A stretch of DNA of 34,427 nt from a virus. The stretch lies in UHGV virus genome UHGV-0118447, one strand, 5' to 3'. The notes beneath the pieces were generated by a model. It was not told the origin of the DNA and did not search any database. It worked only from the letters and a program-made list of their open reading frames with translations. Made by a program: the position numbers and the translations under genes. Shown in pieces: positions 2,837 through 24,330 of this stretch (position 1 is the stretch's first letter; every line of letters starts with the position of its first letter).

Positions 2837-3268
2837 TTAGTCCTCACCTTTCTGTTGCACTACCGGAACCGATAAATCGACGCACCAGGAGATAACGCCG
2901 AATTGATCATCGTTCTGCGCTTCACCCCAAACGTAATATTTTGATCCTGGCCGACCCATTGCCGGGTCAAATACTTCTATGCCGCGTTCTGCCGTTAACG
3001 ACATCAGAATCTGATGCAGGCCGCCTTTGATGTTCAGTGACGGAACGGTCAGGAAGTAAATAAACCCGTAAAGCAATTCGGCCTTGCGCTGGCTTCCGTA
3101 AAAATACGGGATTTTGTAATAATCCAGCGCGTCGTCGAGCCAGTCTGTTTTGTCGTGGAATTTCTGATGCCAGCGTTCCACTACCTCATCGACAGGTTGA
3201 CCGGCAACCATTGCAACGCAGGTAGCCATGCAGGTGTTAAATGTTGGCTGCATTTGATGTTGAAGCAT
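2837..3268 (-). CDS. Putative papain-fold cysteine peptidase-like protein (143 aa)
   Basis: Q-x5-C (QPTFNTC) near the N-terminus, then His (GGLHQIL) and Asp 17 residues later (VFDPA), the spacing of a papain-like triad; start ATG overlaps upstream stop (TGATG). Confidence 0.5.
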   Translation of the reverse strand: MLQHQMQPTFNTCMATCVAMVAGQPVDEVVERWHQKFHDKTDWLDDALDYYKIPYFYGSQRKAELLYGFIYFLTVPSLNIKGGLHQILMSLTAERGIEVFDPAMGRPGSKYYVWGEAQNDDQFGVISWCVDLSVPVVQQKGED

Positions 3269-3879
3269 CACTCCCCCTTACCGATGCCGGCGGCGCGGTC
3301 TATGCGTTCGATTTCAGCCAGAATTAAAGCCCCTGCTTTTACCAGGTTGCGACGGCGGGCATTTGGCTTCCACCATGAAGCATCCCAAGGCCACCCCCAC
3401 GGCTTGCCACCATTGCGGTTAACAGTTTCTGTTTCGTTTATGTAACAAACCGCCGCCATTGCCAGTTCCCCGTTGCAGTGTTCGTCATCATGCTCTGGCA
3501 TCCACCCCTCAACCGATTGTTGCCGCTGGCGCTCTGCTATCACATCCAGAATTGCAGGATTGAATGCACGCGCTTCCAGTTCAGCAATCCGCTCCTCATA
3601 CCGAGCGCCAACGGAAACGGCTTTATGGAAGGCTTCGCACCATTTTGACGATTGCGCCTGCATCTTCTCCAGCTCATCCAGCAGCGCCAAGACGGTAGCC
3701 GGATTGGCTGCGGCGATAAATGCAGCATCACGCGCTTCGTTTTCACTGAATACCATGGCTATTTGCTCATGGTTCACGCCGTCAGTGGAGTAAATCTCAT
3801 CGTCGAACTCAACAGCCCACCGGCCTTTCGTCGCCTTCTCCGCCGCTTCACGCAGAGCCTGGTAATTAATCTCGCTCAC
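3268..3879 (-). CDS. Ead/Ea22-like protein with C-terminal putative dATP/dGTP pyrophosphohydrolase-like domain
   Basis: N-terminal [16 protein letters not shown] motif typical of Ead/Ea22-like proteins; probable GTG start at 3879 preceded by AGGAGG (the ORF track starts at 3900). Confidence 0.6.
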
Positions 3880-6678: not shown

Positions 6679-7149
6679 CTAATAAAACACCCAATTTTCT
6701 GTTTCTTGGTTGTGTCCAAAGTTATATTCAATATCTGGTGTTGATGTATCAATATTCTTCATCCCATCAACAAGAGTTGATACAACAGCCAAATCTTGTT
6801 TGATTCTCATCAAATGGTATTTCTTCCGGCGCAATAAACTTTCAATGGCAAGTTTCTTCGTCGGGAACGCAAAAGATCTTTCTGCATTTTTTGCTACTTT
6901 CTTAATTGCATATCTATTTCTCCTTTGTTTCCATTCCTGTAACCACTGATTTGGTGCTGGTTTAAAATTAACAATCCAATGCGCAGGAACCAACCATGCA
7001 TAATGCTCTGTCTGATGAAAAGCTATATATTGAAGTGCGAATATTTTGATTCCATCTTCTTCAACTGTCGCTTGGAATCTCCAGAAAACAGGCATTCCCT
7101 CATGTTCAGTTTCTGATTCAGGAAAAGGTACGCTCCATGATTTTGTCAT
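6679..7149 (-). CDS. Hypothetical protein in AT-rich island (156 aa)
   Basis: ATG ORF; local GC clearly lower than flanks; followed by a 9-bp-stem hairpin (about 6637-6664) and the tL terminator. Confidence 0.6.
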   Translation of the reverse strand: MTKSWSVPFPESETEHEGMPVFWRFQATVEEDGIKIFALQYIAFHQTEHYAWLVPAHWIVNFKPAPNQWLQEWKQRRNRYAIKKVAKNAERSFAFPTKKLAIESLLRRKKYHLMRIKQDLAVVSTLVDGMKNIDTSTPDIEYNFGHNQETENWVFY

Positions 7150-7152
7150 ATA

Positions 7153-7440
7153 TTACTCATCTCCAAGGGCTTTGCTGATTGCTGCGATACCTTTATTAAC
7201 AGCTCCATACCATTCTGGATATGTTGTCGTTGTTCTATTTTTGGTTTGCTTAAGTAATAACTGAAGTGCTTCGAGAAGGTCAGGAGCTGCTGCTATCAGT
7301 AGCGCATCCTCCCTTTCATTTCTTGTTGCTGCTTCAATGTATGTGTCACCAATCGTCACACCATGGAACGTAGTCATCATCTCGTTGACGTTTCTAACCG
7401 TGTACTTCCATTTACCAGGCGTACCCTTAAACTCTTTCAT
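7153..7440 (-). CDS. Ead/Ea22-like N-domain protein (about 95 aa)
   Basis: GKWKY...AAAPDLLEALQ parallels the N-domain of the 3268-3879 gene; ATG at 7440 preferred over the GTG at 7446. Confidence 0.55.
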   Translation of the reverse strand: MKEFKGTPGKWKYTVRNVNEMMTTFHGVTIGDTYIEAATRNEREDALLIAAAPDLLEALQLLLKQTKNRTTTTYPEWYGAVNKGIAAISKALGDE

Positions 7441-7471
7441 ATCCACCTCTGTTGTTTATGCCAAAGCAAAT

Positions 7472-7714
7472 TTAACCATCAACAAACTCTTCTGGTAATT
7501 TATCAACCAGTTGATGACTTATTATCAGCCATTTGCCATCCTTCGTTTCGTATGCATATTTCTGGTCTTTTATCATCAGGTGTTCGGCTACTGCCCTAAC
7601 TGCCTGATCGGTGACATCTTCTCTCTTTCCTACCCACATTCCTTTTTCAGTGTTTAATGTTCCTTGAAAAATACGACCGCTTAATGGGCTTGCGCCCATA
7701 GTTTTTACTCTCAT
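7472..7714 (-). CDS. Hypothetical protein (80 aa)
   Basis: ATG ORF in the pL operon downstream of N. Confidence 0.5.
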   Translation of the reverse strand: MRVKTMGASPLSGRIFQGTLNTEKGMWVGKREDVTDQAVRAVAEHLMIKDQKYAYETKDGKWLIISHQLVDKLPEEFVDG

Positions 7715-7770
7715 GTATCAGCTCTCAAATAAGTGTTTTGCTGCGAAAATAAATCCGCTTAAGTTACCTG

Positions 7771-7908
7771 TTATTTATCCCACCAAGTTCCGTATCTATC
7801 TATCCAGTTACACCAATCGTCGACACTCCATTTTGTTGTGTCGCATTTTGGCAATTGGCATGAATATCTACCTTCTTTGTAAAGTCGGCGTTTGATTTTC
7901 TTGAGCAT
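7771..7908 (-). CDS. Small Cys/Trp-rich protein (45 aa) immediately downstream of N
   Basis: ATG 7 nt after the N stop with GAGGTGG SD; sequence MLKKIKRRLYKEGRYSCQLPKCDTTKWSVDDWCNWIDRYGTWWDK; below the ORF-track cutoff. Confidence 0.4.
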   Translation of the reverse strand: MLKKIKRRLYKEGRYSCQLPKCDTTKWSVDDWCNWIDRYGTWWDK

Positions 7909-7915
7909 GACCACC

Positions 7916-8248
7916 TCAATCGTAATAAGCTGGAATTGATTTTCCGCGTTGCTTCTGGCGGCCTGAACAGGTCACACCCATTTCACTACGTGGCTTGCTG
8001 TACCATGTGCGCTGATTCTTGCGCTCAATACGTTGCAGGTTGCTTTCAATCTGTTCGTGGTATTCAGCCAGCACTGTAAGGTCTATCGGATTCAGTGCGC
8101 TTTCTACTCGTGATTTCGGTTTGCGATTCAGCGAGAGAATAGGGCGGTTAACTGGTTTTGCGCTTACCCCAACCAACAGGGGATTTGCTGCTTTCCATTG
8201 AGCCTGTTTCTCTGCGCGACGTTCGCGGCGGCGTGTTTGTGCATCCAT
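7916..8248 (-). CDS. N: Antitermination protein N (lambda-type)
   Basis: MDAQTRRRERRAEKQAQWKAAN arginine-rich motif and lambda N-like remainder; start at the internal ATG of the track ORF. Confidence 0.9.
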   Translation of the reverse strand: MDAQTRRRERRAEKQAQWKAANPLLVGVSAKPVNRPILSLNRKPKSRVESALNPIDLTVLAEYHEQIESNLQRIERKNQRTWYSKPRSEMGVTCSGRQKQRGKSIPAYYD

Positions 8249-8420
8249 CTGGATTCTCCTGTCAGTTAGCTTTGGTGGTGTGGTAGGTGGGAGACCCATT
8301 TCGACCTGCTTCGGCCGACTTCAATTCGGCAATAGTTCCGCAGGCCTCGCCGCTTTACGTGCGACATATTCCCATCCATGAACCCTTCACCACACCCCAA
8401 AGCCTTCTGCTTTGAATGCT

Positions 8421-8451
8421 GCCCTTCTTCAGGGCTTAATTTTTAAGAGCG
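8421..8451 (-). promoter_or_regulatory. nutL (boxA CGCTCTTAA and boxB GCCCTGAAGAAGGGC)
   Basis: boxB hairpin at about 8421-8435 and boxA at about 8443-8451, read on the minus strand, upstream of N. Confidence 0.8.
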
Positions 8452-8490
8452 TCACCTTCATGGTGGTCAGTGCGTCCTGCTGATGGCTAA

Positions 8491-8519
8491 ATAGTACGAT
8501 TTGTACTTTATCGAGTCAA
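8491..8519 (-). promoter_or_regulatory. pL promoter with overlapping operator OL1
   Basis: Minus strand TTGACT-17 bp-TACTAT; dyad AGTACAAATCGTACT inside the spacer. Confidence 0.6.
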
Positions 8520-8582
8520 TACAAAATGTTCTATATATAATTAGTTTTTTATAACGCTTTGTATTTAATGGGTTTATATTTT

Positions 8583-8614
8583 GGAAAAAGAAAACCCGAC
8601 GCTAAGGTCGGGTT
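8583..8614 (-). terminator. Intrinsic terminator directly after cI
   Basis: Minus-strand AACCCGAC-CTTAGC-GTCGGGTT hairpin followed by TTTTCTTTTT, about 30 nt after the cI stop. Confidence 0.6.
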
Positions 8615-8644
8615 ATTGTTGTGTGTTTTAGAGTTGTGAGGCTG

Positions 8645-9304
8645 TTAACTAAATGTCTCTTCAGGCCACTGGCTGGCGATAACTTTCCCTACTACGGAAC
8701 AGCTATCATTGCATGGAATCATTGGATATTGCGGGTTTAGTGGCTGTAGGAACACCTGACCGCTATCCCTGATCAGTTTCTTGAAGGTAAACTCGTCACC
8801 ACCAAGTCTGGCTATGCAGAAATCACCTGGCTCAACAGCCTGCTCAGGGTCAACGAGAATTAACATCCCGTCAGGAAAGCTTGGCTTGGATCCTGTTGGC
8901 GCGGTCATGGAATTACCTTCAACTTCAAGCCAGAACGCACAATCACTGGCTTTTTTGGTTGTGCTGACCCATCTCTCCGCATCACCTTTGGTAAAGGTTC
9001 TAAGCTCAGGCGAGAACATCCCGGCCTGAACATGAGAAAAAACAGGGTACTCATATTGTTTTTTAACGGGGGCAGATGAGTATTCGCCAACAGGTGAAAA
9101 TGTACCGTCGTGGTTGAATGAGACGTTATCAATACCAAGGTATTTAAACACCACACCAATCTCGTCAAGAGATGGATGACGAGATCCGCGCAACCAGTGA
9201 CCAATTCCACCCTGCGTCATACCAAGCTCTTCAGCTAACTTCTCTTGAGTTATGCCGAGCTCTTTCATTCTGGATCTAGCCAGTTCATACCATTTCATTT
9301 TCAT
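8645..9304 (-). CDS. cI: CI repressor (LexA/S24 autopeptidase type) with lambda-like C-terminal domain and a different N-terminal HTH
   Basis: C-terminal roughly 150 aa match lambda CI from memory; N-terminal HTH ([23 protein letters not shown]) is not lambda; start at MKMKW, track N-terminal extension rejected. Confidence 0.9.
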
Positions 9305-9417
9305 ACCCTTATTATTACGCTCTGTACTAAAACCATCCATGCACAAGATGTATTTTTTTTGTTTGCATTCTAAAAGTACATATCGTATTATTGTTTCATG
9401 GTTACTATGGAGGGCAT
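9305..9417. promoter_or_regulatory. OR region: pR (TTGCAT-17-TATTAT), OR1-like site AAGTACATATCGTATTAT, and pRM-proximal site on the opposite strand
   Basis: -35 at about 9363-9368 and -10 at about 9386-9391; operator core nearly identical to the pL operator; related half-sites near 9311-9330. Confidence 0.55.
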
Positions 9418-9633
9418 ATGAGCAACCTACGAAAATATCGAGAGTCACTGAATATCTCTCAAACAACACTTGCTAAGGCTGTTGGATGCACACAGGGGGC
9501 TATCGGACATTGGGAATCTGGTCGTCGCTTCCCAGACCTTAAAACATGCCGTGCTCTTGTTGAGTGCCTAAACAAGTTAGGCGCAAAAGTCAGTCTTGAT
9601 GACGTGTTCCCGCCGGAACACAAAGCCGCTTAA
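9418..9633 (+). CDS. cro: Cro-like repressor (XRE-family HTH, 71 aa)
   Basis: GGAGGG SD 4 nt upstream; HTH related to that of the cI N-domain; divergent from cI across the operator region. Confidence 0.8.
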
Positions 9634-9641
9634 GACATTCC

Positions 9642-9673
9642 CGCTCTTACACATCCCAGCCCTGAAAAAGGGC
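9642..9673 (+). promoter_or_regulatory. nutR (boxA CGCTCTTA and boxB GCCCTGAAAAAGGGC)
   Basis: boxA at about 9642-9649 and boxB at about 9659-9673, just after the cro stop. Confidence 0.8.
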
Positions 9674-9752
9674 ATCAAATTAAGCCACACCTATGGTGTA
9701 TGCATTTATTTGCATACATTCAATCAATTGTTATCTAAGGAAATACTTACAT

Positions 9753-10031
9753 ATGCAACTTACAAGTACTCGCAAGAAAGCGAATGCAATTACAAGCAAC
9801 ATCCTGAATCGAATTGCTGTACGTGGTCAGCGAAAGGTTGCCGACGCGTTAGGGATTAATGAATCGCAAATTTCGCGATGGAAAGACAGCTTCATCCCCA
9901 AAATGGGAATGCTTCTGGCTGTTCTTGAATGGGGTGTTGAAGACGAGGAGTTGGCGGAACTGGCTAAGAAAGTAGCCAGAATGCTGACAAAAGAAAAAGC
10001 CCCGAAGAACGGCGAATTCTTCGAGGCCTGA
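9753..10031 (+). CDS. cII: Transcriptional activator CII (divergent from lambda CII)
   Basis: 92 aa; SQISRWK...IPK...MLLAVLEWGV core shared with lambda CII; upstream leader is lambda-like. Confidence 0.85.
   Translation: MQLTSTRKKANAITSNILNRIAVRGQRKVADALGINESQISRWKDSFIPKMGMLLAVLEWGVEDEELAELAKKVARMLTKEKAPKNGEFFEA
9786..9799 (-). promoter_or_regulatory. CII-binding direct repeats (TTGC-N6-TTGC) of a pRE-like promoter
   Basis: Plus strand GCAATTACAAGCAA inside the 5' end of cII, same relative position as lambda pRE. Confidence 0.5.
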
Positions 10032-10055
10032 TGTAGAAAGACTGGATCTATCAAC
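9989..10055 (-). ncRNA. oop: oop-like antisense RNA overlapping the cII 3' end
   Basis: Minus-strand 10-bp hairpin (one mismatch) plus CTTTTTCTTTT over about 9989-10026; the cII-O intergenic sequence matches lambda; 5' end placed by analogy, not observed. Confidence 0.45.
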
Positions 10056-10065
10056 AGGAGTCATT

Positions 10066-10965
10066 ATGACAAATACAGCAAAAATACTCAACTTCGGCAG
10101 AGGTAACTTTGCCGGACAGGAGCGTAATGTGGCAGATCTCGATGATGGTTACGCCAGACTATCAAATATGCTGCTTGAGGCTTATTCGGGCGCAGATCTG
10201 ACCAAGCGACAGTTTAAAGTGCTGCTTGCCATTCTGCGTAAAACCTATGGGTGGAATAAACCAATGGACAGAATCACCGATTCTCAACTTAGCGAGATTA
10301 CAAAGTTACCCGTCAAACGGTGCAATGAAGCCAAGTTAGAACTCGTCAGAATGAATATTATCAAGCAGCAAGGCGGCATGTTTGGACCAAATAAAAACAT
10401 CTCAGAATGGTGCATCCCTCAAAACGAGGGAAAATCCCCTAAAACGAGGGATAAAACATCCCTCAAATTGGGGGATTGCTATCCCTCAAAACAGGGGGAC
10501 ACAAAAGACACTATTACAAAAGAAAAAAGAAAAGATTATTCGTCAGAGAATTCTGGCGAATCCTCTGACCAGCCAGAAAACGACCTTTCTGTGGTGAAAC
10601 CGGATGCTGCAATTCAGAGCGGCAGCAAGTGGGGGACAGCAGAAGACCTGACCGCCGCAGAGTGGATGTTTGACATGGTGAAGACTATCGCACCATCAGC
10701 CAGAAAACCGAATTTTGCTGGGTGGGCTAACGATATCCGCCTGATGCGTGAACGTGACGGACGTAACCACCGCGACATGTGCGTGCTGTTCCGCTGGGCA
10801 TGCCAGGACAACTTCTGGTCCGGTAACGTGCTGAGCCCGGCCAAACTCCGTGACAAGTGGACCCAGCTCGAAATCAACCGTAACAAGCAACAGGCAGTCG
10901 TGACAGCCAGCAAACCAAAACTCGACCTGACAAACACAGACTGGATTTACGGGGTGGATCTATGA
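10066..10965 (+). CDS. O: Replication initiator O (lambda-type)
   Basis: 299 aa; N- and C-terminal sequences match lambda O from memory; contains the ori iterons. Confidence 0.95.
   Translation: MTNTAKILNFGRGNFAGQERNVADLDDGYARLSNMLLEAYSGADLTKRQFKVLLAILRKTYGWNKPMDRITDSQLSEITKLPVKRCNEAKLELVRMNIIKQQGGMFGPNKNISEWCIPQNEGKSPKTRDKTSLKLGDCYPSKQGDTKDTITKEKRKDYSSENSGESSDQPENDLSVVKPDAAIQSGSKWGTAEDLTAAEWMFDMVKTIAPSARKPNFAGWANDIRLMRERDGRNHRDMCVLFRWACQDNFWSGNVLSPAKLRDKWTQLEINRNKQQAVVTASKPKLDLTNTDWIYGVDL
10414..10499 (+). repeat. ori-lambda iterons (four repeats of about 18 bp, ATCCCTCAAAACGAGGGA-like) followed by an AT-rich region
   Basis: Four tandem iterons at about 10414, 10434, 10458 and 10481; AT-rich tract to about 10560. 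Confidence 0.85.
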
Positions 10966-11663
10966 AAAACATCGCCGCACAGATGGTTAACTTTGACCGT
11001 GAGCAGATGCGTAGGATCGCCAACAACATGCCGGAACAGTACGACGAAAAGCCGCAGGTACAGCAGGTAGCGCAGATCATCAACGGTGTGTTCAGCCAGT
11101 TACTGGCAACTTTCCCGGCGAGTCTGGCTAACCGTGACCAGAACGAACTGAACGAAATCCGCCGCCAGTGGGTTCTGGCTTTCCGGGAAAACGGGATCAC
11201 CACAATGGAACAGGTTAACGCAGGAATGCGCGTAGCCCGTCGGCAGAATCGACCATTTCTGCCATCACCCGGGCAGTTTGTTGCATGGTGCCGGGAAGAA
11301 GCATCCGTTATCGCCGGACTGCCAAACGTCAGCGAGCTGGTTGATATGGTTTACGAGTATTGCCGGAAGCGAGGCCTGTATCCGGATGCGGAGTCTTATC
11401 CGTGGAAATCAAACGCGCACTACTGGCTGGTTACCAACCTGTATCAGAACATGCGGGCCAATGCGCTTACTGATGCGGAATTACGCCGTAAGGCCGCAGA
11501 TGAGCTTGTCCATATGACTGCGAGAATTAACCGTGGTGAGGCGATCCCTGAACCAGTAAAACAACTTCCTGTCATGGGCGGTAGACCTCTAAATCGTGCA
11601 CAGGCTCTGGCGAAGATCGCAGAAATCAAAGCTAAGTTCGGACTGAAAGGAGCAAGTGTATGA
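10962..11663 (+). CDS. P: Replication protein P (DnaB helicase loader, lambda-type)
   Basis: 233 aa, lambda P-like throughout; ATGA overlap with O. Confidence 0.95.
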   Translation: MKNIAAQMVNFDREQMRRIANNMPEQYDEKPQVQQVAQIINGVFSQLLATFPASLANRDQNELNEIRRQWVLAFRENGITTMEQVNAGMRVARRQNRPFLPSPGQFVAWCREEASVIAGLPNVSELVDMVYEYCRKRGLYPDAESYPWKSNAHYWLVTNLYQNMRANALTDAELRRKAADELVHMTARINRGEAIPEPVKQLPVMGGRPLNRAQALAKIAEIKAKFGLKGASV

Positions 11664-11950
11664 CGGGCAAAGAGGCAATTATTCATTACCTGAGGACGCA
11701 TAATAGCTTCTGTGCGCCGGACGTTGCCGCGCTAACAGGCGCAACAGTAACCAGCATAAATCAGGCCGCGGCTAAAATGGCACGGGCAGGTCTTCTGGTT
11801 ATCGAAGGTAAGGTCTGGCGAACGGTGTATTACCGGTTTGCTACCAAGGAAGAACGGGAAGGAAAGATGAGCACGAACCTGATTTTTAAGGAGTGTCGCC
11901 AGAGTGCCGCGATGAAACGGGTATTGGCGGTATATGGAGTTAAAAGATGA
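11660..11950 (+). CDS. ren: Ren protein
   Basis: 96 aa, lambda Ren-like (MTGKEAIIHYL...). Confidence 0.9.
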   Translation: MTGKEAIIHYLRTHNSFCAPDVAALTGATVTSINQAAAKMARAGLLVIEGKVWRTVYYRFATKEEREGKMSTNLIFKECRQSAAMKRVLAVYGVKR

Positions 11951-11975
11951 CCATCTACATCACTGAGCTAATAAC

Positions 11976-12007
11976 AGGCCTGCTGGTAATCGCAGGCCTT
12001 TTTATTT
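11976..12007 (+). terminator. tR2-like intrinsic terminator between ren and ninB
   Basis: AGGCCTGC-TGGTAATC-GCAGGCCT hairpin followed by TTTTATTT. Confidence 0.75.
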
Positions 12008-12023
12008 GGGGGAGAGGGAAGTC

Positions 12024-12464
12024 ATGAAAAAACTAACCTTTGAAATTCGATCTCCAGCACATCAGCAGAACGCCATTCAAGCTATCCAGCAAATCCTTCC
12101 AGACCCAACCAAACCAATCGTAGTAACCATTCAGGAACGCAACCGCAGCTTAGACCAGAATCGAAAGCTTTGGGCTTGCCTTGGTGACGTCTCTCGTCAG
12201 GTTGAATGGCATGGTCGCTGGCTGGATGCAGAAAGCTGGAAGTGCGTTTTTACAGCAGCATTAAAGCAGCAGGACGTTGTTCCTAACCTTGCCGGGAATG
12301 GCTTTGTGGTAATAGGCCAGTCAACCAGCAGGATGCGTGTAAGCGAATTTGCGGAGCTATTAGAGCTTATACAGGCATTCGGTACAGAGCGTGGCGTTAA
12401 GTGGTCAGACGAAGCGCGACTAGCTCTCGAATGGAAAGCGCGATGGGGAGATCGGGCTGCATGA
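12024..12464 (+). CDS. ninB: NinB (Orf-family recombination mediator)
   Basis: 146 aa starting MKKLTFEIRSPAHQQNAI, lambda NinB-like; GGGGGAGAGGGAAG SD. Confidence 0.9.
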   Translation: MKKLTFEIRSPAHQQNAIQAIQQILPDPTKPIVVTIQERNRSLDQNRKLWACLGDVSRQVEWHGRWLDAESWKCVFTAALKQQDVVPNLAGNGFVVIGQSTSRMRVSEFAELLELIQAFGTERGVKWSDEARLALEWKARWGDRAA

Positions 12465-15317: not shown

Positions 15318-15620
15318 TAGAAGGTAAGCTGCCGTTAGTGACTCTTAAGTTGCAACGGTGGCTTTTTTTGTTTGCACAACAGGTAAGAGCATTGAACCCG
15401 CAGACCTCGCGGAATTGGTGAAAGGTGCCGCGCAGTGCTCTTATCGTTGTGGTGAATACGCAGGCTGATGCGTTAACTTATCAGCTAGATGGTGAGGTAA
15501 AGGCTCACCATGGCGACGACGGGTAGTTCATTTACATGCCGGAAAACACAGCACCGGTCACCACACACCAAATACCTACCAGGACCATAAGAGCAAAAGC
15601 TCAACGCACTACCCTCTATT

Positions 15621-15646
15621 GCCCACCGCGCCGTGGGCTTTTTTAT
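15621..15646 (+). terminator. Intrinsic terminator upstream of S (tR'-like)
   Basis: GCCCAC-CGCGCC-GTGGGC hairpin followed by TTTTTTAT. Confidence 0.55.
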
Positions 15647-15752
15647 TGCAGGCCGCAGATATCATTTTCAGATGCCATGTAGCAATCAGAGTCTGACGGC
15701 CTTTCCCCTACAAACACACACAGCACCATCCGGAAAATCGGAGGTGAGGCCT

Positions 15753-16076
15753 ATGAAAATGCCATACAAACAAGATTTCATCGCTGCGCTACTTGCCGCC
15801 AAGGAGCAGGGTATTGGTGCAATGCTGGCTTTTATCATGGCGTATCTGCGTGGTCGCTATAACGGCGGCGCGGTAACAAAAACGCTAATTGATGCGCTGA
15901 TGTGCGCGATGATTGCCTGGTTCGTTCGTGACCTTCTGGACTTTATCGGCCTGAGCAGCAACCTCGCCTACATAGCCAGCGTCTTTATTGGATACATCGG
16001 CACCGATTCGATCGGCAATCTGATTAAAAAACTTGCAGCAAAAAAGGCGGGAGTTGACGATGCAAACCAGTCCTGA
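15753..16076 (+). CDS. S: Holin (lambda S family, dual-start MKM motif)
   Basis: 107 aa starting [22 protein letters not shown], lambda S-like; GGAGGTGAGG SD. Confidence 0.9.
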
Positions 16077-16509
16077 CGGAATTGCTCTGATAAAAAAATT
16101 TGAAGGTTGTCGGCTGACTGCTTACCCCGACCCCGGAACGGGAGATGCGCCGTGGACCATCGGCTATGGCTGGACCCATCCGGTTGACGGAAAGCCAGTA
16201 AAGCGCGGTATGACTATCGACCAGCAAACAGCTGACAGGCTTCTGAAAACAGGGCTTGTTGGTTATGAGAATGACGTGCTGAAAGTTGTCAGGGTGAAGC
16301 TGACACAAGGCCAGTTCGACGCACTGGTGTCGTTCGCTTACAACGTTGGGTCGCGTGCTCTTTCCACATCTACACTGCTGAAAAAGCTGAATGCTGGCGA
16401 TATAAAAGGCGCGGCAGATGAATTTCTGCGCTGGAATAAATCAGGCGGAAAGGTGATGCCGGGGCTCACGAATCGCCGCAAGGCAGAGCGAGCTCTGTTC
16501 CTGTCATGA
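16060..16509 (+). CDS. R: Endolysin (GH24 T4/P22-type lysozyme)
   Basis: 149 aa; FEG-x-RLTAY-PD and GYG-x-T motifs; C-terminal [11 protein letters not shown] resembles the P22 gp19 lysozyme. Confidence 0.9.
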
Positions 16510-16982
16510 TTAGCGCACTGGTTAAGCGTTACTGGCTGCAGTTGCTGGTGCTGGCGTTAATCGGCGCACTGGCTTTCTTCGTGAACCACTACCGCGACAA
16601 CGCCATTACCTACAAAGACCAGCGAGATAAAGCCACCAAGAGTGTCCGCATGGCTAACGACACCATCAAAGACATGCAGACCCGCCAGCGTGATGTTGCT
16701 GCACTGGACGCCAAATACACGAAGGAGCTAGCCGATGCAAAAGCTGAAAATGATGCTCTGCAGCGCAAGCTTGATAATGGTGGTCGGGTGTTCGTCAAAG
16801 GAAAATGCCCTATGCCATCCTCAGCCGAAACCTCCAGCGCCTCCGGCATGGGCGATGATGCCACCGTCGAACTCTCTGCAGTTGCTGGACGAAACGTTCT
16901 CGGTATCCGGTCCGGAATCGTCAGCGACCAAACAGCCTTGAGGGCGCTGCAGGAATACATCACCACGCAGTGCCTGAAATAA
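16506..16982 (+). CDS. Rz: Spanin inner-membrane subunit Rz
   Basis: N-terminal TM segment then NHYRDNAITYK and RQRDVAALDAKYTKELADAKAENDAL, lambda Rz-like. Confidence 0.85.
   Translation: MISALVKRYWLQLLVLALIGALAFFVNHYRDNAITYKDQRDKATKSVRMANDTIKDMQTRQRDVAALDAKYTKELADAKAENDALQRKLDNGGRVFVKGKCPMPSSAETSSASGMGDDATVELSAVAGRNVLGIRSGIVSDQTALRALQEYITTQCLK
16735..16941 (+). CDS. Rz1: Spanin outer-membrane lipoprotein Rz1 (embedded in Rz, +1 frame)
   Basis: MQKLKMMLC...VVGCSS lipobox and Pro-rich region, lambda Rz1-like. Confidence 0.75.
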   Translation: MQKLKMMLCSASLIMVVGCSSKENALCHPQPKPPAPPAWAMMPPSNSLQLLDETFSVSGPESSATKQP

Positions 16983-16984
16983 CA

Positions 16985-17008
16985 GCCTCGCAATAGCGGG
17001 GCTTTTTT
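16985..17008 (+). terminator. Intrinsic terminator immediately after Rz
   Basis: GCCTCGC-AATA-GCGGGGC (one G-U pair) followed by TTTTTT; a palindrome ATGCGCATCTCACGCGCAT follows at about 17009-17027. Confidence 0.55.
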
Positions 17009-17143
17009 ATGCGCATCTCACGCGCATATTACATCACCCGAGCCTTTCAGAAAGTTGAGCCTGAGAACTGCCGTATATGGTGGCGACCATCTCGGGGCGG
17101 CTTTTCTGTGAGACAGGCTCACTTTCTAAAAGGTAAAGACGCT

Positions 17144-17662
17144 ATGAATAATCCGTCAGTTATTCCGGCCTTCGACTTCCGCGAAATGGTCACGACCCTC
17201 GACAACAAGATAATCACCACATCACTCAAGGTGGCGGATTACTTTGGCAAGCGACACAAAGACGTTTTGCGTGCCATACGTAACCTGAAATGCTCCGATG
17301 ACTTCACCCAGCGCAATTTTGCGCCCATTGATTTCATTGATAAAAATGGCGATGTTCAGCCTATGTATAACATCACCCGCGACGGATGCATGATGCTAGT
17401 GATGGGATTCACTGGCAAAACAGCTGCCGCAGTGAAGGAGTGTTACATCAATGCCTTCAACTGGATGGCCGAGCAGCTAAACCGGCGCATGGCGATGGGT
17501 GAAGAATTGCAGCATCGCTACGCCATCAAAGAAACGCGCTCAAAGCTGAAAGGCACGATCGGAAGCCGTTTGATGAACGAGCGGAAGAAAGAGAAGCGCG
17601 TCCTGGAGCTCGAACATGAGCACATCATGCAGGTAACGCAGCCGGAATTACTTATTGGCTGA
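17144..17662 (+). CDS. rha: Rha-family phage regulatory protein
   Basis: 172 aa; N-terminal KVADYFGKRHKDVLRAIRNL is typical of the Rha/antirepressor N-domain. Confidence 0.7.
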   Translation: MNNPSVIPAFDFREMVTTLDNKIITTSLKVADYFGKRHKDVLRAIRNLKCSDDFTQRNFAPIDFIDKNGDVQPMYNITRDGCMMLVMGFTGKTAAAVKECYINAFNWMAEQLNRRMAMGEELQHRYAIKETRSKLKGTIGSRLMNERKKEKRVLELEHEHIMQVTQPELLIG

Positions 17663-17722
17663 TCGCGGCATTACAGAAGCCCTTCATTGAGGGGCTTCGA
17701 TAATGGAGCACTGGAATTATTC

Positions 17723-18343
17723 ATGAACAGACCACACCCACCAGCGCATTTTACGATGCCACCTGACCCGAAGCCGTACATCAGCATTATGCCCGCTAAT
17801 GACGTTGGCGAGTGGCTGAATCAGCACATCCTGAGCGATGAGGGTGACCTCTACAACCATGACCACCAGCATTTGCTTGAAGCGGATCTGTGCTTTCTCT
17901 GGGCGTCTAACGCTTTCGAGAAGAAAGGGCGTTCCGTGCTGGGGCAGGCGGAAGAAGTGGCAATGCGGGCTGGAGGCTGGCAGAAAGCGCGGATGGAGCA
18001 GCAGATGTATGAATGGTTCGGCAGGGTGCCGCAGTTCATCATCACGCTGGCCGCTGATTACTGCTCGCAATGTTCCGATCTGGAATTCTGTGCGCTGATA
18101 GAGCACGAGCTTTATCACATCTGCCAGGCGACAGATGAATTTGGCGCGCCGAAGTTCACGCAGGAAGGGCAGCCAAAGCTGAAGCTGCGCGGCCATGACG
18201 TGGAAGAGTTTGTGGGCGTGGTTCGCCGTTACGGTGCAAGCCGGGACGTGCAGGAAATGATTGATGCGGCGAATCAGCCAGCGGAGGTTGCTCATCTCGA
18301 TATTGCCAGAGCGTGCGGGACGTGCATGCTGCGACTGGCTTAA
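17723..18343 (+). CDS. HExxH zinc-metallopeptidase-like protein (SprT/ImmA-like architecture)
   Basis: HELYH motif flanked by CxxC pairs (CSQCSD upstream, CGTC near the C-terminus); ATG at 17723. Confidence 0.55.
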   Translation: MNRPHPPAHFTMPPDPKPYISIMPANDVGEWLNQHILSDEGDLYNHDHQHLLEADLCFLWASNAFEKKGRSVLGQAEEVAMRAGGWQKARMEQQMYEWFGRVPQFIITLAADYCSQCSDLEFCALIEHELYHICQATDEFGAPKFTQEGQPKLKLRGHDVEEFVGVVRRYGASRDVQEMIDAANQPAEVAHLDIARACGTCMLRLA

Positions 18344-18374
18344 ATACTGGACTGTATAAGACGAATGGTGATTT

Positions 18375-18848
18375 ATGGCTGCATTAAAACCTGATGTGAA
18401 AGCCTTCATCATTCAATCGCTTGCGTGCTATGACACGCCATCGCAGGTGGTCGAGGCTGTCCAAAAAGAATTCGGGATCAAGATTACCCGCCAGCAGGCT
18501 GAATCTCACGACCCCACGAAGGCCAGCGGTAAGACGCTCGCCAAAAAGTGGATCGAGATGTTCCACGCGACGCGCGAACGGTTCCTGACCGAAACCAGCG
18601 ACATTCCGATAGCGAACAAATCCTATCGCCTCCGCGTGCTTGACCGCATGGCAACCAAAACCGAGGGGATGAAAAACTTCTCCCTGACGGCGCAGCTTAT
18701 CGAACAGGCCGCGAAAGAGGTTGGCGACGCTTACACCAATAAGCTGAAGGTTGAGAGCACTGGCAAGGATGGCGGCCCGATCAAGACCGAGACGACCAAC
18801 CTCACCGCAGATCAGGCCGCAGAGATTTACCGCAAGATGATGGGGTGA
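18375..18848 (+). CDS. Putative terminase small subunit
   Basis: 157 aa directly upstream of, and overlapping, the large terminase gene; family recalled as commonly annotated TerS. Confidence 0.5.
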
Positions 18849-18850
18849 TC

Positions 18851-20473
18851 ATGCCTCTCCCGTTTGAATTCGATTTCAGAAACCCTGATTACCAGATGGT
18901 TTTTGAATGGCGGATGGAGCGCTTACAGCGCATTCGCCAGAACCCTGAAATGCTGCCAGCGCTAAAGCAGTTTTATCGCACCAACCCGGCACAGTTCATC
19001 ATCGACTGGGGTATGACTACTGACCCGCGTAACATCGATTATGGCCTGCCGGTCACCATCCCTTTTCTGCTGTTCCCGAAACAGGAAGAGTGGATTCACT
19101 GGATCATGGAGCGGCGCGAACGACTGGAGAACGGCATCACCGAAAAGAGCCGCGAAATGGGGCTCAGTTGGACCGCGATCGGGCTGGCCTGCTCGCTTTG
19201 TCTCTTCAACAAAGAAATGGTTATCGGTTTCGGCTCCCGTAAAGAGGAATACGTCGACAGCACCGGTGACCCGAAGGCGCTGTTCTGGAAGGCGCGAAAG
19301 TTCGTGGAAACACTGCCCATCGAGTTTCGTGGTTCGTGGGACGAGAAGAAGCATGCGCCCTACATGCGCGTTGAGTTTCCCGATACTGGCGCGGTCATCA
19401 AAGGCGAGGCTGGCGACAATATCGGACGTGGTGACCGTACCACGCTCTACCTGGTGGATGAGGCTGCATTCCTCCAGCGTCCTCTGCTGATTGATGCGGC
19501 GCTGTCGCAAACCACCCGCTGCCGTATCGACCTGAGCTCGGTTAACGGCATGGCGAACCCGTTCGCGCAGAAGCGTCACGGCGGGAAGATACCGGTATTC
19601 ACATTCCACTGGCGAAATGACCCGCGCAAGGATGAAGAGTGGTATCGCAGGGAATGCGAGAAAATCGACAATCCGGTGGTGGTAGCGCAGGAACTTGACC
19701 TGAACTACAGCGCATCTGCGGAAGGCGTCCTGATCCCGTCCGATTGGGTACAGGCTGCCGTCGACGCTCATATTAAGCTGGGCATCCAGCCAACGGGCAA
19801 ACGCCTGGGCGCGATGGACGTCGCCGACGAAGGCCGGGACAAAAACGCCTTTTCGACCCGTCACGGCTTCCTCCTGGAGAACGTGCGGGAATGGTCCGGC
19901 GTGGGCAGCGACATTTACCAGTCCGTTGAGAAGGTCTTCGGCTTTTGCGAACAGGACAACCTCGAAGAATTTCGCTTCGACGAGGACGGCCTGGGCGCTG
20001 GCGTTCGCGGCGATGCACGCGCCATCAACGAACTGCGTAACGCTGCGCGCCGACCGTCAATACTCGCCACACCGTTTCGCGGTAGCGGCGCGGTGTTTGA
20101 TCCGGACGACGAAGCGGTGCGCGGCGACAATGGACAGGCCGCCCGCCTGAACAAGGACTTCTTCGCTAACGCTAAGGCCCAGAGCTGGTGGCAATTACGC
20201 AAGCTTTTCCAGAACACCTATCGCGCCGTGGTTGAGGGAATGGCCTACAACCCGGACGAAATTATCTCAATCAGCAGCGCCATGGCGAGCAAAGACAAAC
20301 TCATCATCGAGCTGTCGCAACCGACCTATTCCATTAACGGTGTGGGGAAAATCGTTGTTGATAAACAGCCTGACGGCACCAAGTCGCCGAACCTCGCCGA
20401 CTCGGTGATGATCAGCTACGCGCCAATGAATTCAGCCCTGAACATCTGGGAGCTGCTAGGGAGACAGGCCTGA
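18851..20473 (+). CDS. terL: Terminase large subunit
   Basis: 540 aa; position and size; ATG at 18851 preferred over the GTG at 18845. Confidence 0.8.
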
Positions 20474-21942
20474 TGGCACGAAACAAGCAAGCCTCTCAGC
20501 GAACGGCGCAGGCCACCGCTGATGGCTATGAAAACTTTGTCGCCCGCGTGGGGATGCAGACGCCTAACCAGCACTCAGCATCGACCTACCGGGCGAACTT
20601 CACCAGCCGCAACCGCATGCTGGTGGAATGGTCATATCGCGGATCGTGGGTTATCGGCGAAGCGGTCGACGCTATCCCGGACGATATGACCCGGAAAGGC
20701 ATTCGCATCACTTCGGAGATTGACGCCAAAGACCGTGGCACCCTCGAAGCGCAGCTGGATGAGTTGCAGGTCTGGGATGCGCTGAACGACGTGCTGAAAT
20801 GGTCGCGTCTCTATGGCGGCGCGGTTGGCTTCATCATGATTGAGGGGCAGGCACCAATGACCCCGCTGCGGCTCGAAACTATTGGAGAAGGCAAGTTTAA
20901 GGGCATTCTCCCGCTCGACCGCTGGATGATTAACCCGGTGCTGACCCGCCGCATTAAAGAGATGGGGCCGGATCTCGGCAAACCTGAGTTTTACGACGTG
21001 GTGACAACTGCAACGGGCATCCCGGCCTGGCGCATCCATCACAGCCGCCTGATTCGCTTCGATGGGGTGACGCTGCCATTCCAGCAGAAGATGACCGAAA
21101 ACGAATGGGGAATGTCGGTTGTAGAGCGTATCTGGGATCGGCTTACTGCGTTCGACAGCGCCACTGTCGGCGCGGCGCAGCTGGTCTATAAAGCGCATCT
21201 GCGCACCTACAGCGTGGAGAAGCTGCGCGAGCTTATAGCGCTTGGCGGCCCGGCGTTCGAGGCGCTGCTGAAGAACATCGACCTGATCCGCCAGTTCCAG
21301 AGCAATGAAGGCATGACGCTCATGGACTCGCGGGATAAGTTCGAAACCCACCAGTACAGCTTCAGTGGTCTGGATGACATTCTTTCGCAGTTCGCTGAGC
21401 AGATCAGCGGTGCCGTCGGCATCCCGCTGGTACGCCTGTTCGGTCAGTCCCCGAAAGGCTTCTCTACTGGTGATGCAGACCTCGCCAACTATTACGACCG
21501 GGTGAGCTCATTGCAGGAGCGCCGCTTACGGCTGCCGATGCGCCGGATACTGGACATTATGCACCGCTCGGAACTCGGTAAGCCGCTGCCGGACGATTTC
21601 ACGTTTGAGTTTAACCCGCTATGGCAAATGTCAGACGTTGACCGATCAACGGTGGCCGTAAACACCACCAACGCGATCAGTACCGCGCTGGGCGACGGAT
21701 TGATGACGCGTAAGGCGGCGATGACCGACCTGCGCGAAAACTCTGACGTCACCGGCATCGGGGCATCCATTACCGACGAGGATATCGAGAATGCCGAAGA
21801 CGAAGCGCCGCCAGGCATCGGCGAACTTGGCGACAAACCGCCAGAGTCGCCAGGCGGAGATCCGATATCGAACGAGCCTACGGCAGATAGCGCGGGCGGT
21901 CGGGGATATCGTAAATGGGCGCTACGATGGTTCAAACGATAG
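20473..21942 (+). CDS. Portal protein
   Basis: 489 aa immediately after terL (TGATG junction); acidic C-terminus. Confidence 0.8.
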   Translation: MARNKQASQRTAQATADGYENFVARVGMQTPNQHSASTYRANFTSRNRMLVEWSYRGSWVIGEAVDAIPDDMTRKGIRITSEIDAKDRGTLEAQLDELQVWDALNDVLKWSRLYGGAVGFIMIEGQAPMTPLRLETIGEGKFKGILPLDRWMINPVLTRRIKEMGPDLGKPEFYDVVTTATGIPAWRIHHSRLIRFDGVTLPFQQKMTENEWGMSVVERIWDRLTAFDSATVGAAQLVYKAHLRTYSVEKLRELIALGGPAFEALLKNIDLIRQFQSNEGMTLMDSRDKFETHQYSFSGLDDILSQFAEQISGAVGIPLVRLFGQSPKGFSTGDADLANYYDRVSSLQERRLRLPMRRILDIMHRSELGKPLPDDFTFEFNPLWQMSDVDRSTVAVNTTNAISTALGDGLMTRKAAMTDLRENSDVTGIGASITDEDIENAEDEAPPGIGELGDKPPESPGGDPISNEPTADSAGGRGYRKWALRWFKR

Positions 21943-22564
21943 CGTTACCGAAATAATGGATGCGCTGGAGCGCTACAGCGAAATCATCACCCCCTGGGCG
22001 ACGAAGGTTGCTGAGAACTTTACCGCCGACATTGCACGCCAGAATGAAAAGCAGTGGCGTCAGCACAGCCGGAACATCAGCTCAGAGCTGCGCAACATGG
22101 TCGACCGCGCCCCGGTAGGCCAGGTGATGAAATCCATCGTCGCCGAGCAAATTAAGTACATCAAGTCACTGCCTCTTGAGGCCGCCGATCGGGTGTATGA
22201 CATTCAGAACAAGGCCATCGAGGCCGTTGTGTCTGGTGGCCGCGCTGAGCCATTCGCGAAAGAGATAGCTGCTTCCGGTGACGTGTCACGCTCACGAGCG
22301 AACCTTATCGCCCGGACTGAGCTTGGGCGCGCAACCGGTGCACTGGATCAGGCGCGTGCGCTGTCAATCGGCTCGAATGGTTATATCTGGCGTACAGCCG
22401 AAGATGGCGACGTCCGGCATTCTCATCGAGAGATGGAAGGGAAGTTTGTCGAATGGGGCCGACCTCCAACGCTTGACGGCATGACCGGTCACGCTGGCGA
22501 GCTCCCGAACTGCCGCTGTTACAAAGAAATCGTCTTCCCCAATCCTCATTCTTATCTCGCCTGA
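21791..22564 (+). CDS. Head morphogenesis protein (MuF/SPP1 gp7 family)
   Basis: C-terminal WRTAEDGDVRHSHREMEGKFV and NCRCY motifs typical of MuF-like proteins; start uncertain (21791 with GAGGA SD, or 21956). Confidence 0.7.
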   Translation: MPKTKRRQASANLATNRQSRQAEIRYRTSLRQIARAVGDIVNGRYDGSNDSVTEIMDALERYSEIITPWATKVAENFTADIARQNEKQWRQHSRNISSELRNMVDRAPVGQVMKSIVAEQIKYIKSLPLEAADRVYDIQNKAIEAVVSGGRAEPFAKEIAASGDVSRSRANLIARTELGRATGALDQARALSIGSNGYIWRTAEDGDVRHSHREMEGKFVEWGRPPTLDGMTGHAGELPNCRCYKEIVFPNPHSYLA

Positions 22565-22578
22565 ATCGCAGGTAAAAC

Positions 22579-23811: not shown

Positions 23812-23815
23812 TCCA

Positions 23816-24319
23816 ATGACTGCATATCTGTACCGGATGCCTGTTGGCATTGCCGGGGCTATCTCTCGCCCGCAGGACTTAACCGTCGAGCCGGTGATCC
23901 TTAAATCCGCTAACGCCTTCGCTGCCTATGGTCTGGCTGGCAAATACGACGCTGACGGCTTTTTCGTGCCGCTGGCGGACGGTGACACCGCCGACAAGGT
24001 GAAGGGGATCTACGTTCGTCCGTATCCGACCACATCACAGCCAGACATGGTTCGCCAGGTGGGGACGGATAAGAACTTCCCGGGTGACGCCATGAAGCGT
24101 GGCTACATGACCGTTAATCTCGGTTCTGATTTTGATGCCAGCACCATCAAAAAAGGCGCCCCGGTATACGTTGTCGTCTCCACTGATGAATCCATAAAAG
24201 TGCCGCTGGGCGGCTTCATGTCCACGTCCGTCAGTGGCAAAAACGTGGCGCTGACCAACGCCGAATTCACAGGGGCCGGTGACGCTAACGGCAATGCAGA
24301 AATCTCCTGGAAGATTTAA
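23816..24319 (+). CDS. Putative head structural/decoration protein (167 aa)
   Basis: Gene between scaffold and major capsid genes. Confidence 0.45.
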   Translation: MTAYLYRMPVGIAGAISRPQDLTVEPVILKSANAFAAYGLAGKYDADGFFVPLADGDTADKVKGIYVRPYPTTSQPDMVRQVGTDKNFPGDAMKRGYMTVNLGSDFDASTIKKGAPVYVVVSTDESIKVPLGGFMSTSVSGKNVALTNAEFTGAGDANGNAEISWKI

Positions 24320-24330
24320 GGAACAGACGA

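Follow-up and report, generated by a model that had tools for sequence, protein, structure and literature searches.

Organization of the immunity region

The DNA analyzed is a stretch of 34,427 bp, hereafter called the window, which appears to be an integrated prophage; an integrase gene is located at 50-1210. A complete immunity module occupies positions 8421-9673 and extends from a lambda-type nutL to a lambda-type nutR: its ends coincide with the two boxB elements, at 8421-8435 and 9659-9673. It includes, from left to right, OL/pL, an intrinsic terminator, cI (219 aa), OR/pRM/pR and cro (71 aa). In nutL (8421-8451, minus strand), boxB GCCCTGAAGAAGGGC (8435->8421) is accompanied by boxA CGCTCTTA (8451->8444), within a stretch homologous to lambda nutL; nutR (9642-9673, plus strand), recognized from its sequence, features boxA CGCTCTTA (9642-9649) and boxB GCCCTGAAAAAGGGC (9659-9673). 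On the left flank, a lambda-type N antiterminator gene (7916-8251, minus strand) is detected by the Pfam N36 profile (E = 1.6e-26). The gene order is that of the lambda immunity region (N-nutL-OL/pL-cI-OR-cro-nutR), with three plus three operators of 17 bp, while the distance between OL and OR is about 0.9 kb, as compared to 2.4 kb in lambda.

Homology with lambda DNA (88-94%) covers N-nutL (window 7992-8485, 88% identical to lambda 35104-35583), the codons of the CI C-terminal domain (8651-9055, 93.8% identical to lambda 37233-37637) and nutR-cII-O-P (9640-12464, 93.8% identical to lambda 38247-41084). Its limits are sharp, and fall on OL, within the cI linker and at the cro stop: junctions are found at 8485/8486, on the OL edge, at 8651 and 9055, which enclose C-terminal-domain codons only and beyond which identity becomes undetectable within a few bases, and at 9640, where lambda homology restarts just past the cro stop. 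The immunity region is a recombinational mosaic; the interruption within the cI linker bears out the origin by domain swapping that an earlier, sequence-only reading of this DNA had proposed.

The CI repressor

The cI gene (8645-9304, minus strand; an alternative start at 9298 corresponds to the one annotated for Sp5 ECs_1185) encodes a protein composed of an N-terminal domain (residues 1-62), a linker (63-82) and a C-terminal domain (83-219). Pfam profiles detect HTH_3 at residues 11-58 (E = 8e-11) and Peptidase_S24 at residues 87-209 (E = 9e-29). When aligned to lambda CI, the C-terminal domain is practically the same (133 identities out of 137, 97%), while only 16 of 62 residues (26%) are shared in the N-terminal domain and 2 of 20 in the linker, in agreement with the previous description of a lambda-identical C-terminal domain joined to a different DNA-binding one. 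The Ala-Gly cleavage site is located at residues 92-93; the motifs HVQAGMF, EGNSMT and FKKL are unchanged in the alignment with lambda CI, and Ser (in GNSM) and Lys (in FKKL) correspond to the lambda catalytic residues. CI features the HTH, the S24 domain, the Ala-Gly site and the Ser-Lys pair of autocleaving phage repressors of the lambda CI/LexA type, and would be expected, on these grounds, to undergo RecA-stimulated cleavage.

Cro

The cro gene (9418-9633, plus strand) encodes an all-helical, 71 aa HTH_3 protein (Pfam, E = 1.4e-12). Between Cro and the N-terminal domain of CI, 19 of 47 aligned residues are shared (40%, E = 6e-12), and the recognition helices are nearly identical, TQGGIGHW in CI and TQGAIGHW in Cro: the kinship between the two HTH domains, anticipated from the sequence, is thus supported, and Cro is paralogous to the DNA-binding domain of CI. 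Cro also weakly matches structures of the P22 C2 N-terminal domain. This organization, where Cro and the N-terminal domain of the repressor are homologous and both of the HTH_3 type, is the one found in phages 434 and P22.

Promoters and terminator

Both main promoters were found where, and as, they had been described. A promoter scan reports pL on the minus strand (8491-8519), with -35 TTGACT (8519->8514) and -10 TACTAT (8496->8491) separated by a 17-bp spacer; pR (9363-9391, plus strand) reads TTGCAT-17-TATTAT in the sequence, and TTTGCA-18-TATTAT in the scan. A pRM is predicted on the minus strand at 9311-9339, with -10 AATAAT (9316->9311) and a weak -35, TGGATG (9339->9334): it escapes a consensus promoter scan, and its position was assigned from the sequence, on the model of lambda and of the pRM annotated in AP005153. 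Its start would probably coincide with the A of the cI ATG, giving rise to a leaderless mRNA, as in lambda.

The cI stop is at 8645, 78 bp from OL3. Between them, the terminator scan reports an intrinsic terminator of the cI transcript (8583-8614, minus strand), consisting of a stem-loop (8614->8593) followed by TTTTCTTTTT. RNA folding assigns to the hairpin at 8593-8614 an 8 bp stem and a dG of -12.4 kcal/mol (z = -3.4); the terminator is identical in phage Dewey. RexA, RexB and lambda Cro gave no significant tblastn match anywhere in the window. The sequence-only reading was therefore right in placing a terminator directly after cI, without rexA/rexB genes.

Operators

An 18-mer is common to the two promoters: AAGTACAAATCGTACTAT at pL (8508->8491) and AAGTACATATCGTATTAT at pR (9374-9391) are identical at 16 of 18 positions, as expected from the nearly identical operator core already noticed at both. 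A crude search for AGTAC-N5-GTACT, allowing up to three mismatches, proved too noisy (about 80 matches), and was replaced by a position matrix, for which the six published operators of VT2-Sakai were the only source, and which was scanned over the whole 34,427-bp window. The six best scores (11.8-21.2) correspond exactly to OL1-3 and OR1-3, clustered on the two promoters; in shuffled sequence, about one match reaches the sixth score or exceeds it, and the operator signal is thus above chance. The two sites originally recognized, OL1 and OR1, are real, but four of the six had been missed, the true set being three plus three.

The best score in the window, 21.2, belongs to OL1 (TAGTACGATTTGTACTT, 8492-8508), which has one central mismatch to its VT2-Sakai counterpart. 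OL2 (CAATACAAAATGTTCTA, 8517-8533; score 17.3, two central mismatches) overlaps the pL -35, and is followed by OL3 (TATAACGCTTTGTATTT, 8550-8566; 15.8, one mismatch). On the other side, OR3 (TATTACGCTCTGTACTA, 9313-9329) scores 15.5, with one edge mismatch, a putative operator being reported at the homologous place in AP005153; OR2 (ATGCACAAGATGTATTT, 9339-9355) is the weakest (11.8, two central mismatches), and OR1 (AAGTACATATCGTATTA, 9374-9390) scores 19.2, with two mismatches. All sites thus carry one or two mismatches to VT2-Sakai, most of them falling in the central spacer and the others at the outer edges. The consensus is a 17 bp pseudo-palindrome, tA(g/t)TAC(a/g)-N3-(t/c)GTA(c/t)Tt. 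A LexA (SOS) box was also considered, and rejected: the core is TAC-N5-GTA, not CTGT-N8-ACAG.

Set against VT2-Sakai, the Stx1 phage and Dewey, the region has kept its operators and promoter hexamers, but has diverged in the spacers and flanks of OL, whose overall identity to VT2-Sakai is 77%; this points to selection on OL. Centre-to-centre spacing is 25 bp for OL1-OL2, 26 bp for OR2-OR3, 33 bp for OL2-OL3 and 35 bp for OR1-OR2. The last one varies with a homopolymer T-run, and is 32-33 bp in relatives and 24 bp in lambda; because of this difference from lambda, a lambda-style cooperativity between OR1 and OR2 is not assured.

Immunity type

The module very probably represents the functional lysis/lysogeny switch of an E. 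coli prophage that is lambdoid and mosaic; its type was first sequenced in the Shiga-toxin phage VT2-Sakai (prophage Sp5 of O157:H7 Sakai). CI is 97% identical to the proteins of the Stx1 phage and of VT2-Sakai/Sp5 (ECs_1185): six residues differ, none of them in the HTH, which is identical. In the comparison with the Stx1 phage, 59 of 62 residues are shared by the CI N-terminal domains and 70 of 71 (99%) by the Cro proteins. The cI-cro DNA is 92% identical to the VT2-Sakai/Sp5 type, the pL and pR hexamers occupy equal positions, and all six operators are found at homologous positions in VT2-Sakai, with conserved outer half-sites. The VT2-Sakai operators are annotated in GenBank record AP005153 (Sato), and all six are given in PMC10742460. 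The CI comparison relied on the Stx1 phage and Sakai chromosome copies: the AP000363 copy of the same cI was left out because of an in-frame TAG at codon 31, whereas the chromosomal copy is intact.

The same immunity type is present in VT2-Sakai/Sp5 (cI, ECs_1185; cro, ECs_1186), Nil2, phage 2851 and the PA-series Stx2a phages, as well as in the Stx1 converting phage and Stx2 phage II of Morioka V526. The new immunity specificity put forward by the sequence-only reading, which had itself named a match to a characterised type as contrary evidence, has thus to be abandoned: VT2-Sakai/Sp5 is such a match. That reading was correct on the anatomy, but the module is already known, common in E. coli, and ordinary. 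In a 2023 paper (PMC10742460), Fattah et al. 2000 are credited with having described a repressor highly homologous to lambda CI at the C-terminus and little so at the N-terminus.

Some differences from the Stx phages are found around the shared parts. After cI, terminator and OL follow at once here, while about 1.5 kb, including orf22/b63, are present there; the flanks are lambda-type (N/nut/cII/O/P) rather than HK97- or HK022-like; the T-run separating OR2 from pR has 3 additional nt. The compact, rex-less module recurs, at 99% identity, in phages Dewey, Louie, 720R6 and 683R2, deposited as complete genomes, indicating that complete phages carry it along; Dewey, a complete circular genome from sewage inflow, encodes a 100% identical CI. 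Among complete E. coli genomes, 206 out of 5,426 (about 4%) contain the module.

Relation to lambda immunity and alternative interpretations

The module had also been considered distinct from lambda in its specificity. Operators do not cross-match: a lambda operator matrix scores -3.7 (OL) and 3.3 (OR) here, as compared to 13.5-22.5 on lambda's own sites, and in turn the lambda OL and OR reach -0.7 and 5.8 with the VT2-Sakai matrix. This part of the claim holds at the sequence level, and heteroimmunity to lambda is predicted; in conflict with it, a single second-hand sentence in PMC10742460 attributes to Fattah et al. 2000 a cross-immunity between VT2-Sakai and lambda. Cross-immunity, and hence no separate specificity, might arise from similarity of the recognition helices or from mixed oligomers: the helix-2/helix-3 region of CI is recognisably similar to that of lambda repressor (PDB 1LLI, E = 4e-4), the C-terminal domains are 97% identical, and lambda CI binds all six VT2-Sakai operators, with apparent Kd values of 3.7-6.4 uM (PMC10742460). 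These values, however, reach or exceed the weak end of those measured for lambda CI on its own sites in the same assay (0.21-3.07 uM; PMC10742460): binding is about 15-25-fold weaker than to lambda OR1/OL1, near the non-specific level. Along with unrelated operator matrices and an N-terminal domain only 26% identical, this makes cross-immunity with lambda improbable.

Two further readings concern the state and the origin of the region. A window that appears to be an integrated prophage, with its integrase gene, could be cryptic, and the stop codon in the AP000363 cI copy would fit a decaying remnant, where the switch no longer works; yet cI, cro, both promoters, the terminator and the six operators are all intact here, CI is the same as in Dewey, and the Sakai chromosome cI copy is uninterrupted, so that decay is very unlikely. 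Even less credible is a lambda-like C-terminal domain kept by purifying selection on a common ancestor, without recombination. Peptidase_S24 C-terminal domains are indeed conserved across many repressors, those of epsilon34 and S137 being 79-81% identical; but the nucleotide identity to lambda in the C-terminal-domain codons is 93.8% and vanishes abruptly at 8651 and 9055, and the same domain (79-97% identical) is carried by at least four different heads.

Proposed functioning of the switch

For a working switch of the VT2-Sakai/Sp5 type, we infer by homology a series of functional steps, including the order in which operators are occupied, the activation of pRM, looping, cleavage in the SOS response and heteroimmunity to lambda. 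The CI dimer would bind the six operators through its HTH_3 N-terminal domain, three of them overlapping pL and three pR/pRM. Occupation of OL1/OL2 and OR1 would shut pL and pR. OR2 and OR3 are placed as in lambda relative to pRM (about -43 and -17): CI at OR2, whose centre is at about -43 from the cI ATG, probably activates the weak, probably leaderless pRM, and at OR3 would shut it. The lambda-identical C-terminal domain would provide dimerisation, cooperativity between dimers and, probably, OL-OR looping, as well as RecA-stimulated autocleavage at Ala-Gly by the Ser/Lys dyad. Cro would read the same operators and lead to commitment to lytic growth, as in 434 and P22. The cI transcript is expected to stop at the intrinsic terminator, just before OL3, without rex-type cargo.

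A switch wired unlike that of lambda, in spite of the lambda cooperativity domain, with cross-talk through mixed dimers or tetramers of lambda- and Sp5-type repressors, is a rather doubtful extension of this scheme. A lambda-like spacing is found only in OL1-OL2 and OR2-OR3. The C-terminal domain might pair OR2-OR3 instead of OR1-OR2; CI would then shut pRM near its activating concentration, resulting in low repressor levels and in the 'hair-trigger' induction that PMC5977221 proposes for other Stx phages. Mixed oligomers may form because heteroimmune prophages share a 97%-identical dimerisation domain, and could result in anti-immunity or in the reported 'cross-immunity'.

Homoimmunity of the prophage with Sp5, the Stx2 prophage of O157:H7 Sakai, and with many other Stx phages is predicted from its sequence. 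Prophages of this type, present in about 4% of complete E. coli genomes, could therefore block lysogenic conversion by Stx phages of the same immunity, or recombine with them. As a discovery the region carries little weight: its recombination junctions, placed where protein domains meet and on the edges of operators, make it a textbook case of lambdoid mosaicism. The operator spacing, combined with the shared lambda C-terminal domain, offers a natural test case of how far the logic of cooperativity travels with the domain.

Comparison with other phages

None of what characterizes immλ (a lambda CI head with TATCACCGC-type operators, a lambda-type Cro, rexA/rexB) is found in the module: its operators are unrelated to those of lambda, and its Cro is a helical HTH_3 protein, not of the lambda Cro fold. 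A related build is found in Salmonella phage epsilon34 (g341c), whose repressor joins a head of the same family (50% identical) to a lambda-like C-terminal domain (79%). The epsilon34 OR features a related ATAC...GTAT core, and its record cites Nil2 and VT2-Sa as relatives. Its specificity is probably different, as suggested by the recognition helix, TKGAVSHW instead of TQGGIGHW.

The repressor of BAA2326/P13374, the Stx2 phage of O104:H4, was characterised and its operators footprinted by Chakraborty et al. 2018 (PMC5977221). It too is a Stx-phage CI, whose C-terminal domain is related to that of lambda and whose OR has three sites, but it was rejected as the same protein or immunity type: the P13374 CI is only 50% identical, and the footprinted operators (ATAACTGTGCGTAATG and others) bear no relation to those found here.

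The Cro proteins of phages 434 and P22 are likewise small, helical and paralogous to the head of the repressor, and read the same operators, as proposed here; the 434 and P22 repressors are only 32-37% identical to CI and their operators differ, while the C-terminal domain found here is that of lambda. The laboratory hybrid λimm434 likewise features a heterologous immunity cassette between lambda-type N and cII-O-P.

Organization of the early regulatory region

The early regulatory genes and sites of a lambdoid phage occupy window 8421-9673 and its flanks. The minus-strand N gene at 7916-8251 (Pfam N36, the lambda N arginine-rich peptide) is followed by nutL (8421-8451), OL/pL (8491-8566), a hairpin terminator on the cI strand (8583-8614), cI (8645-9304, minus strand, 219 aa), OR/pRM/pR (9311-9391), cro (9418-9633, 71 aa, HTH_3) and nutR (9642-9673); cII, recognized by Pfam Phage_CII, O, P and ren lie to the right of nutR. 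Two boxB hairpins mark the limits, 8421 and 9673, assigned to the region by the sequence-only reading. The hairpin between the cI stop and OL3 is stable (-12.4 kcal/mol, z = -3.4) and is followed, on the cI strand, by TTTTCTTTTT; RexA, RexB and lambda Cro have no tblastn match in the window. This agrees with the earlier description of cI as followed by a terminator, with no rexA/rexB.

Directly downstream of N, window 6679-7914 holds four small ORFs of unknown function, all on the minus strand (DUF5484, 7771-7914; DUF7446, 7472-7714; phrog_1273, 7153-7446; phrog_1636, 6679-7149), where lambda features sieB/ral. Exclusion or anti-defence genes are frequent at this pL-proximal moron position.

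Identification of the immunity type

When the 1,253-bp region was compared to phage records by megablast, 99% identity over the full length was found with vB_EcoP-720R6, vB_EcoP-683R2, Louie and Dewey, and about 93% over cI-cro with Nil2, phage 2851, the PA-series Stx2a phages and two phages of Morioka V526 (the Stx1 converting phage and Stx2 phage II). The CI sequence is the same as in Dewey (100%) and is 97% identical to the Stx1-phage, VT2-Sakai and Sp5 (ECs_1185) proteins; Cro shares 70 of its 71 residues with Stx1-phage Cro. In GenBank record AP005153, cI is annotated as 'similar to phage lambda CI', and three putative operators are indicated at OL and three at OR, together with pR and pRM. 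VT2-Sakai-type CI and lambda CI have been grouped in 'Clade I' (PMC8951638); the high C-terminal and low N-terminal homology of VT2-Sakai CI to lambda CI was noted by Fattah et al. 2000, as cited in PMC10742460. The module is therefore of the Sp5/VT2-Sakai immunity type, sequenced and annotated before, and does not define a new specificity: the match is essentially to a type already described, the outcome that the sequence-only reading had named as its refutation. The compact, rex-less form is widespread in E. coli: 206 of 5,426 complete genomes contain it (one unbroken match covering at least 80% of the query), and 1,421 match the query partially.

CI differs from Sp5 CI at six positions, none within the helix-turn-helix, and each operator differs from its VT2-Sakai counterpart at 1-2 positions, mostly in the central spacer, the others at the outer site edges; homoimmunity with Sp5/VT2-Sakai is predicted on these grounds.

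In AP000363, the original proviral record of VT2-Sakai, cI (3001-3660) carries an in-frame TAG at codon 31, in the recognition-helix region (MT*GG), and its CDS is annotated as shortened to 510 nt. The RefSeq copy of the Sakai chromosome (Sp5 ECs_1185; NC_002695, 7055-7714) has CAG at this codon and an intact cI. The TAG reflects a mutation in the clone or strain, or else an error in sequencing, and calls for caution in using AP000363 as a reference for cI.

Promoters and operators

The promoters are those originally indicated, pL being TTGACT-17-TACTAT and pR TTGCAT-17-TATTAT, and the near-identical operator core described for them is an 18-mer matching at 16 of 18 positions. A symmetrised matrix, built solely from the six 17-bp VT2-Sakai operators listed in a published supplement (PMC10742460), was used to scan the whole 34-kb window. 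The best six matches, scoring from 21.2 down to 11.8, are the six operators; the next match scores 10.3, and shuffled sequence equals or exceeds the sixth score at about one site. OL1 (8492-8508) lies between the pL hexamers, overlapping the -10, OL2 (8517-8533) overlaps the pL -35, and OL3 is found at 8550-8566; OR1 (9374-9390) overlaps the pR -10, OR2 (9339-9355) adjoins the -35 of a predicted weak pRM and OR3 (9313-9329) covers the predicted pRM -10. The operator consensus reads tA(g/t)TAC(a/g)NNN(t/c)GTA(c/t)Tt. The two sites first proposed belong to the set, from which four had been missed. When OL is aligned to VT2-Sakai and the Stx1 phage, operators and hexamers are kept, while the sequence between the operators, and all that lies upstream, is scrambled: this is the pattern predicted by selection on binding sites.

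Centre-to-centre distances are 25 bp for OL1-OL2 and 26 bp for OR2-OR3, similar to those of lambda (24 and 23 bp), but 33 bp for OL2-OL3 and 35 bp for OR1-OR2, against 20 and 24 bp in lambda. The T-run between OR2 and the pR -35 (9353-9362) is T8 here, T6 in Dewey and T5 in VT2-Sakai and the Stx1 phage, so that the OR1-OR2 distance takes values of 35, 33 and 32 bp, respectively, with no constant helical phase. Speculatively, with OR1 and OR2 32-35 bp apart, the lambda C-terminal domain might pair OR2 with OR3, rather than OR1 with OR2, making the autoregulation of the switch tighter.

By homology with lambda, 434 and P22, CI dimers would repress pL and pR from OL1/OL2 and OR1, activate pRM from OR2 (centred about -43 from the cI ATG) and repress it from OR3, while Cro would contest the same operators. 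The best pRM -10, AATAAT (9316->9311), would place the first transcribed base on the A of the cI start codon (9304); the message would then lack a leader, like that of lambda, and would be expected to terminate before OL3. The lambda C-terminal domain would provide dimerisation, pairwise cooperativity and RecA-stimulated autocleavage, and would probably also let OL and OR loop together across about 0.9 kb.

Relation to lambda immunity

A specificity distinct from that of lambda had also been proposed. A lambda operator matrix, which scores 13.5-22.5 on the sites of lambda itself, scores -3.7 on OL and 3.3 on OR here; the VT2-Sakai matrix scores -0.7 on lambda OL and 5.8 on lambda OR. As the matrices do not cross-match, the module is predicted to be heteroimmune to lambda. 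The opposite behavior, cross-immunity, would fit the VT2-Sakai/lambda cross-immunity reported second-hand, from Fattah et al. as cited in PMC10742460, where lambda CI is also seen to bind VT2-Sakai operators with an apparent Kd of 3.7-6.4 uM. In the same assay, however, its own sites are bound at 0.21-3.07 uM (PMC10742460), and the affinities for VT2-Sakai operators are regarded as near non-specific. With the matrices also against it, cross-immunity appears quite improbable; heteroimmunity, the preferred reading, is supported by the operators and opposed by the cited report.

Mosaic origin

CI contains HTH_3 and Peptidase_S24 domains. Aligned by domain, residues 83-219 are identical to lambda CI at 133 of 137 positions, the N-terminal domain at 16 of 62 and the linker at 2 of 20, in line with the lambda-identical C-domain and different head already noticed; the HVQ-AG-MF cleavage site and the catalytic Ser (GNSM) and Lys (FKKL) are kept. 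The proposed relatedness of the CI and Cro helix-turn-helices is borne out by 40% identity over 47 residues (E = 6e-12), with near-identical recognition helices (TQGGIGHW in CI, TQGAIGHW in Cro), as in 434 and P22 but not in lambda. The solved structure closest to Cro (9418-9630) is PDB chain 28tn_A, a 'lambda repressor-like protein' (E = 2.4e-16, residues 1-69), which shares its C-terminal SxDDVFPP tail.

A blastn comparison with the whole lambda genome gives three blocks: 7992-8485 (lambda 35104-35583, 88%), spanning N and nutL and stopping 6 bp short of OL1; 8651-9055 (lambda 37233-37637, 93.8%), confined to the codons of the CI C-terminal domain; and 9640-12464 (lambda 38247-41084, 93.8%), beginning 6 bp past the cro stop. 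The DNA that separates them is all non-lambda: OL, the terminator, the part of cI that encodes head and linker, OR and cro. Within cI, the junction falls at codon 83-84, where the linker meets the C-terminal domain. These blocks are direct evidence that the module was built by recombination, the 'domain swapping' originally suggested, and not by conservation. Similar C-terminal domains (79-97% identical) carry other heads in epsilon34, whose head is 50% identical to the present one, and in Salmonella phage S137, whose head is unrelated. OL (8472-8582) is only 77% identical to Stx-phage OL, vs 92% for cI-cro, and homology stops just past OL3, indicating separate histories of OL and cI-OR-cro even within one immunity type.

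Lambda and VT2-Sakai homology both run precisely up to the cI stop codon (8645-8651), and CI ends in Ser, where lambda, Sp5, epsilon34 and S137 have Gly. The 3' end of cI is therefore itself a recombination junction, past which a bare terminator replaces rexAB (lambda) or orf22 (Sp5).

The cII product (9753-10031; 92 aa, Phage_CII) has an N-terminus markedly unlike that of lambda CII, despite 93.8% overall blastn identity over nutR-cII-O-P; its counterpart in AP005153 is annotated as HK022-like. Read on the opposite strand, the first codons of cII give TTGCATTCGCTTTCTTGC, which may be a pRE -35 region bound by CII. The prophage overall, with its integrase at 50-1210, is a multi-parent mosaic: the early region is similar to those of HK140, mEp043, Louie and Dewey, and the late (morphogenesis) half, at 15568-25000, is not lambda-like and shares 97% identity with Citrobacter phage Omnitron.
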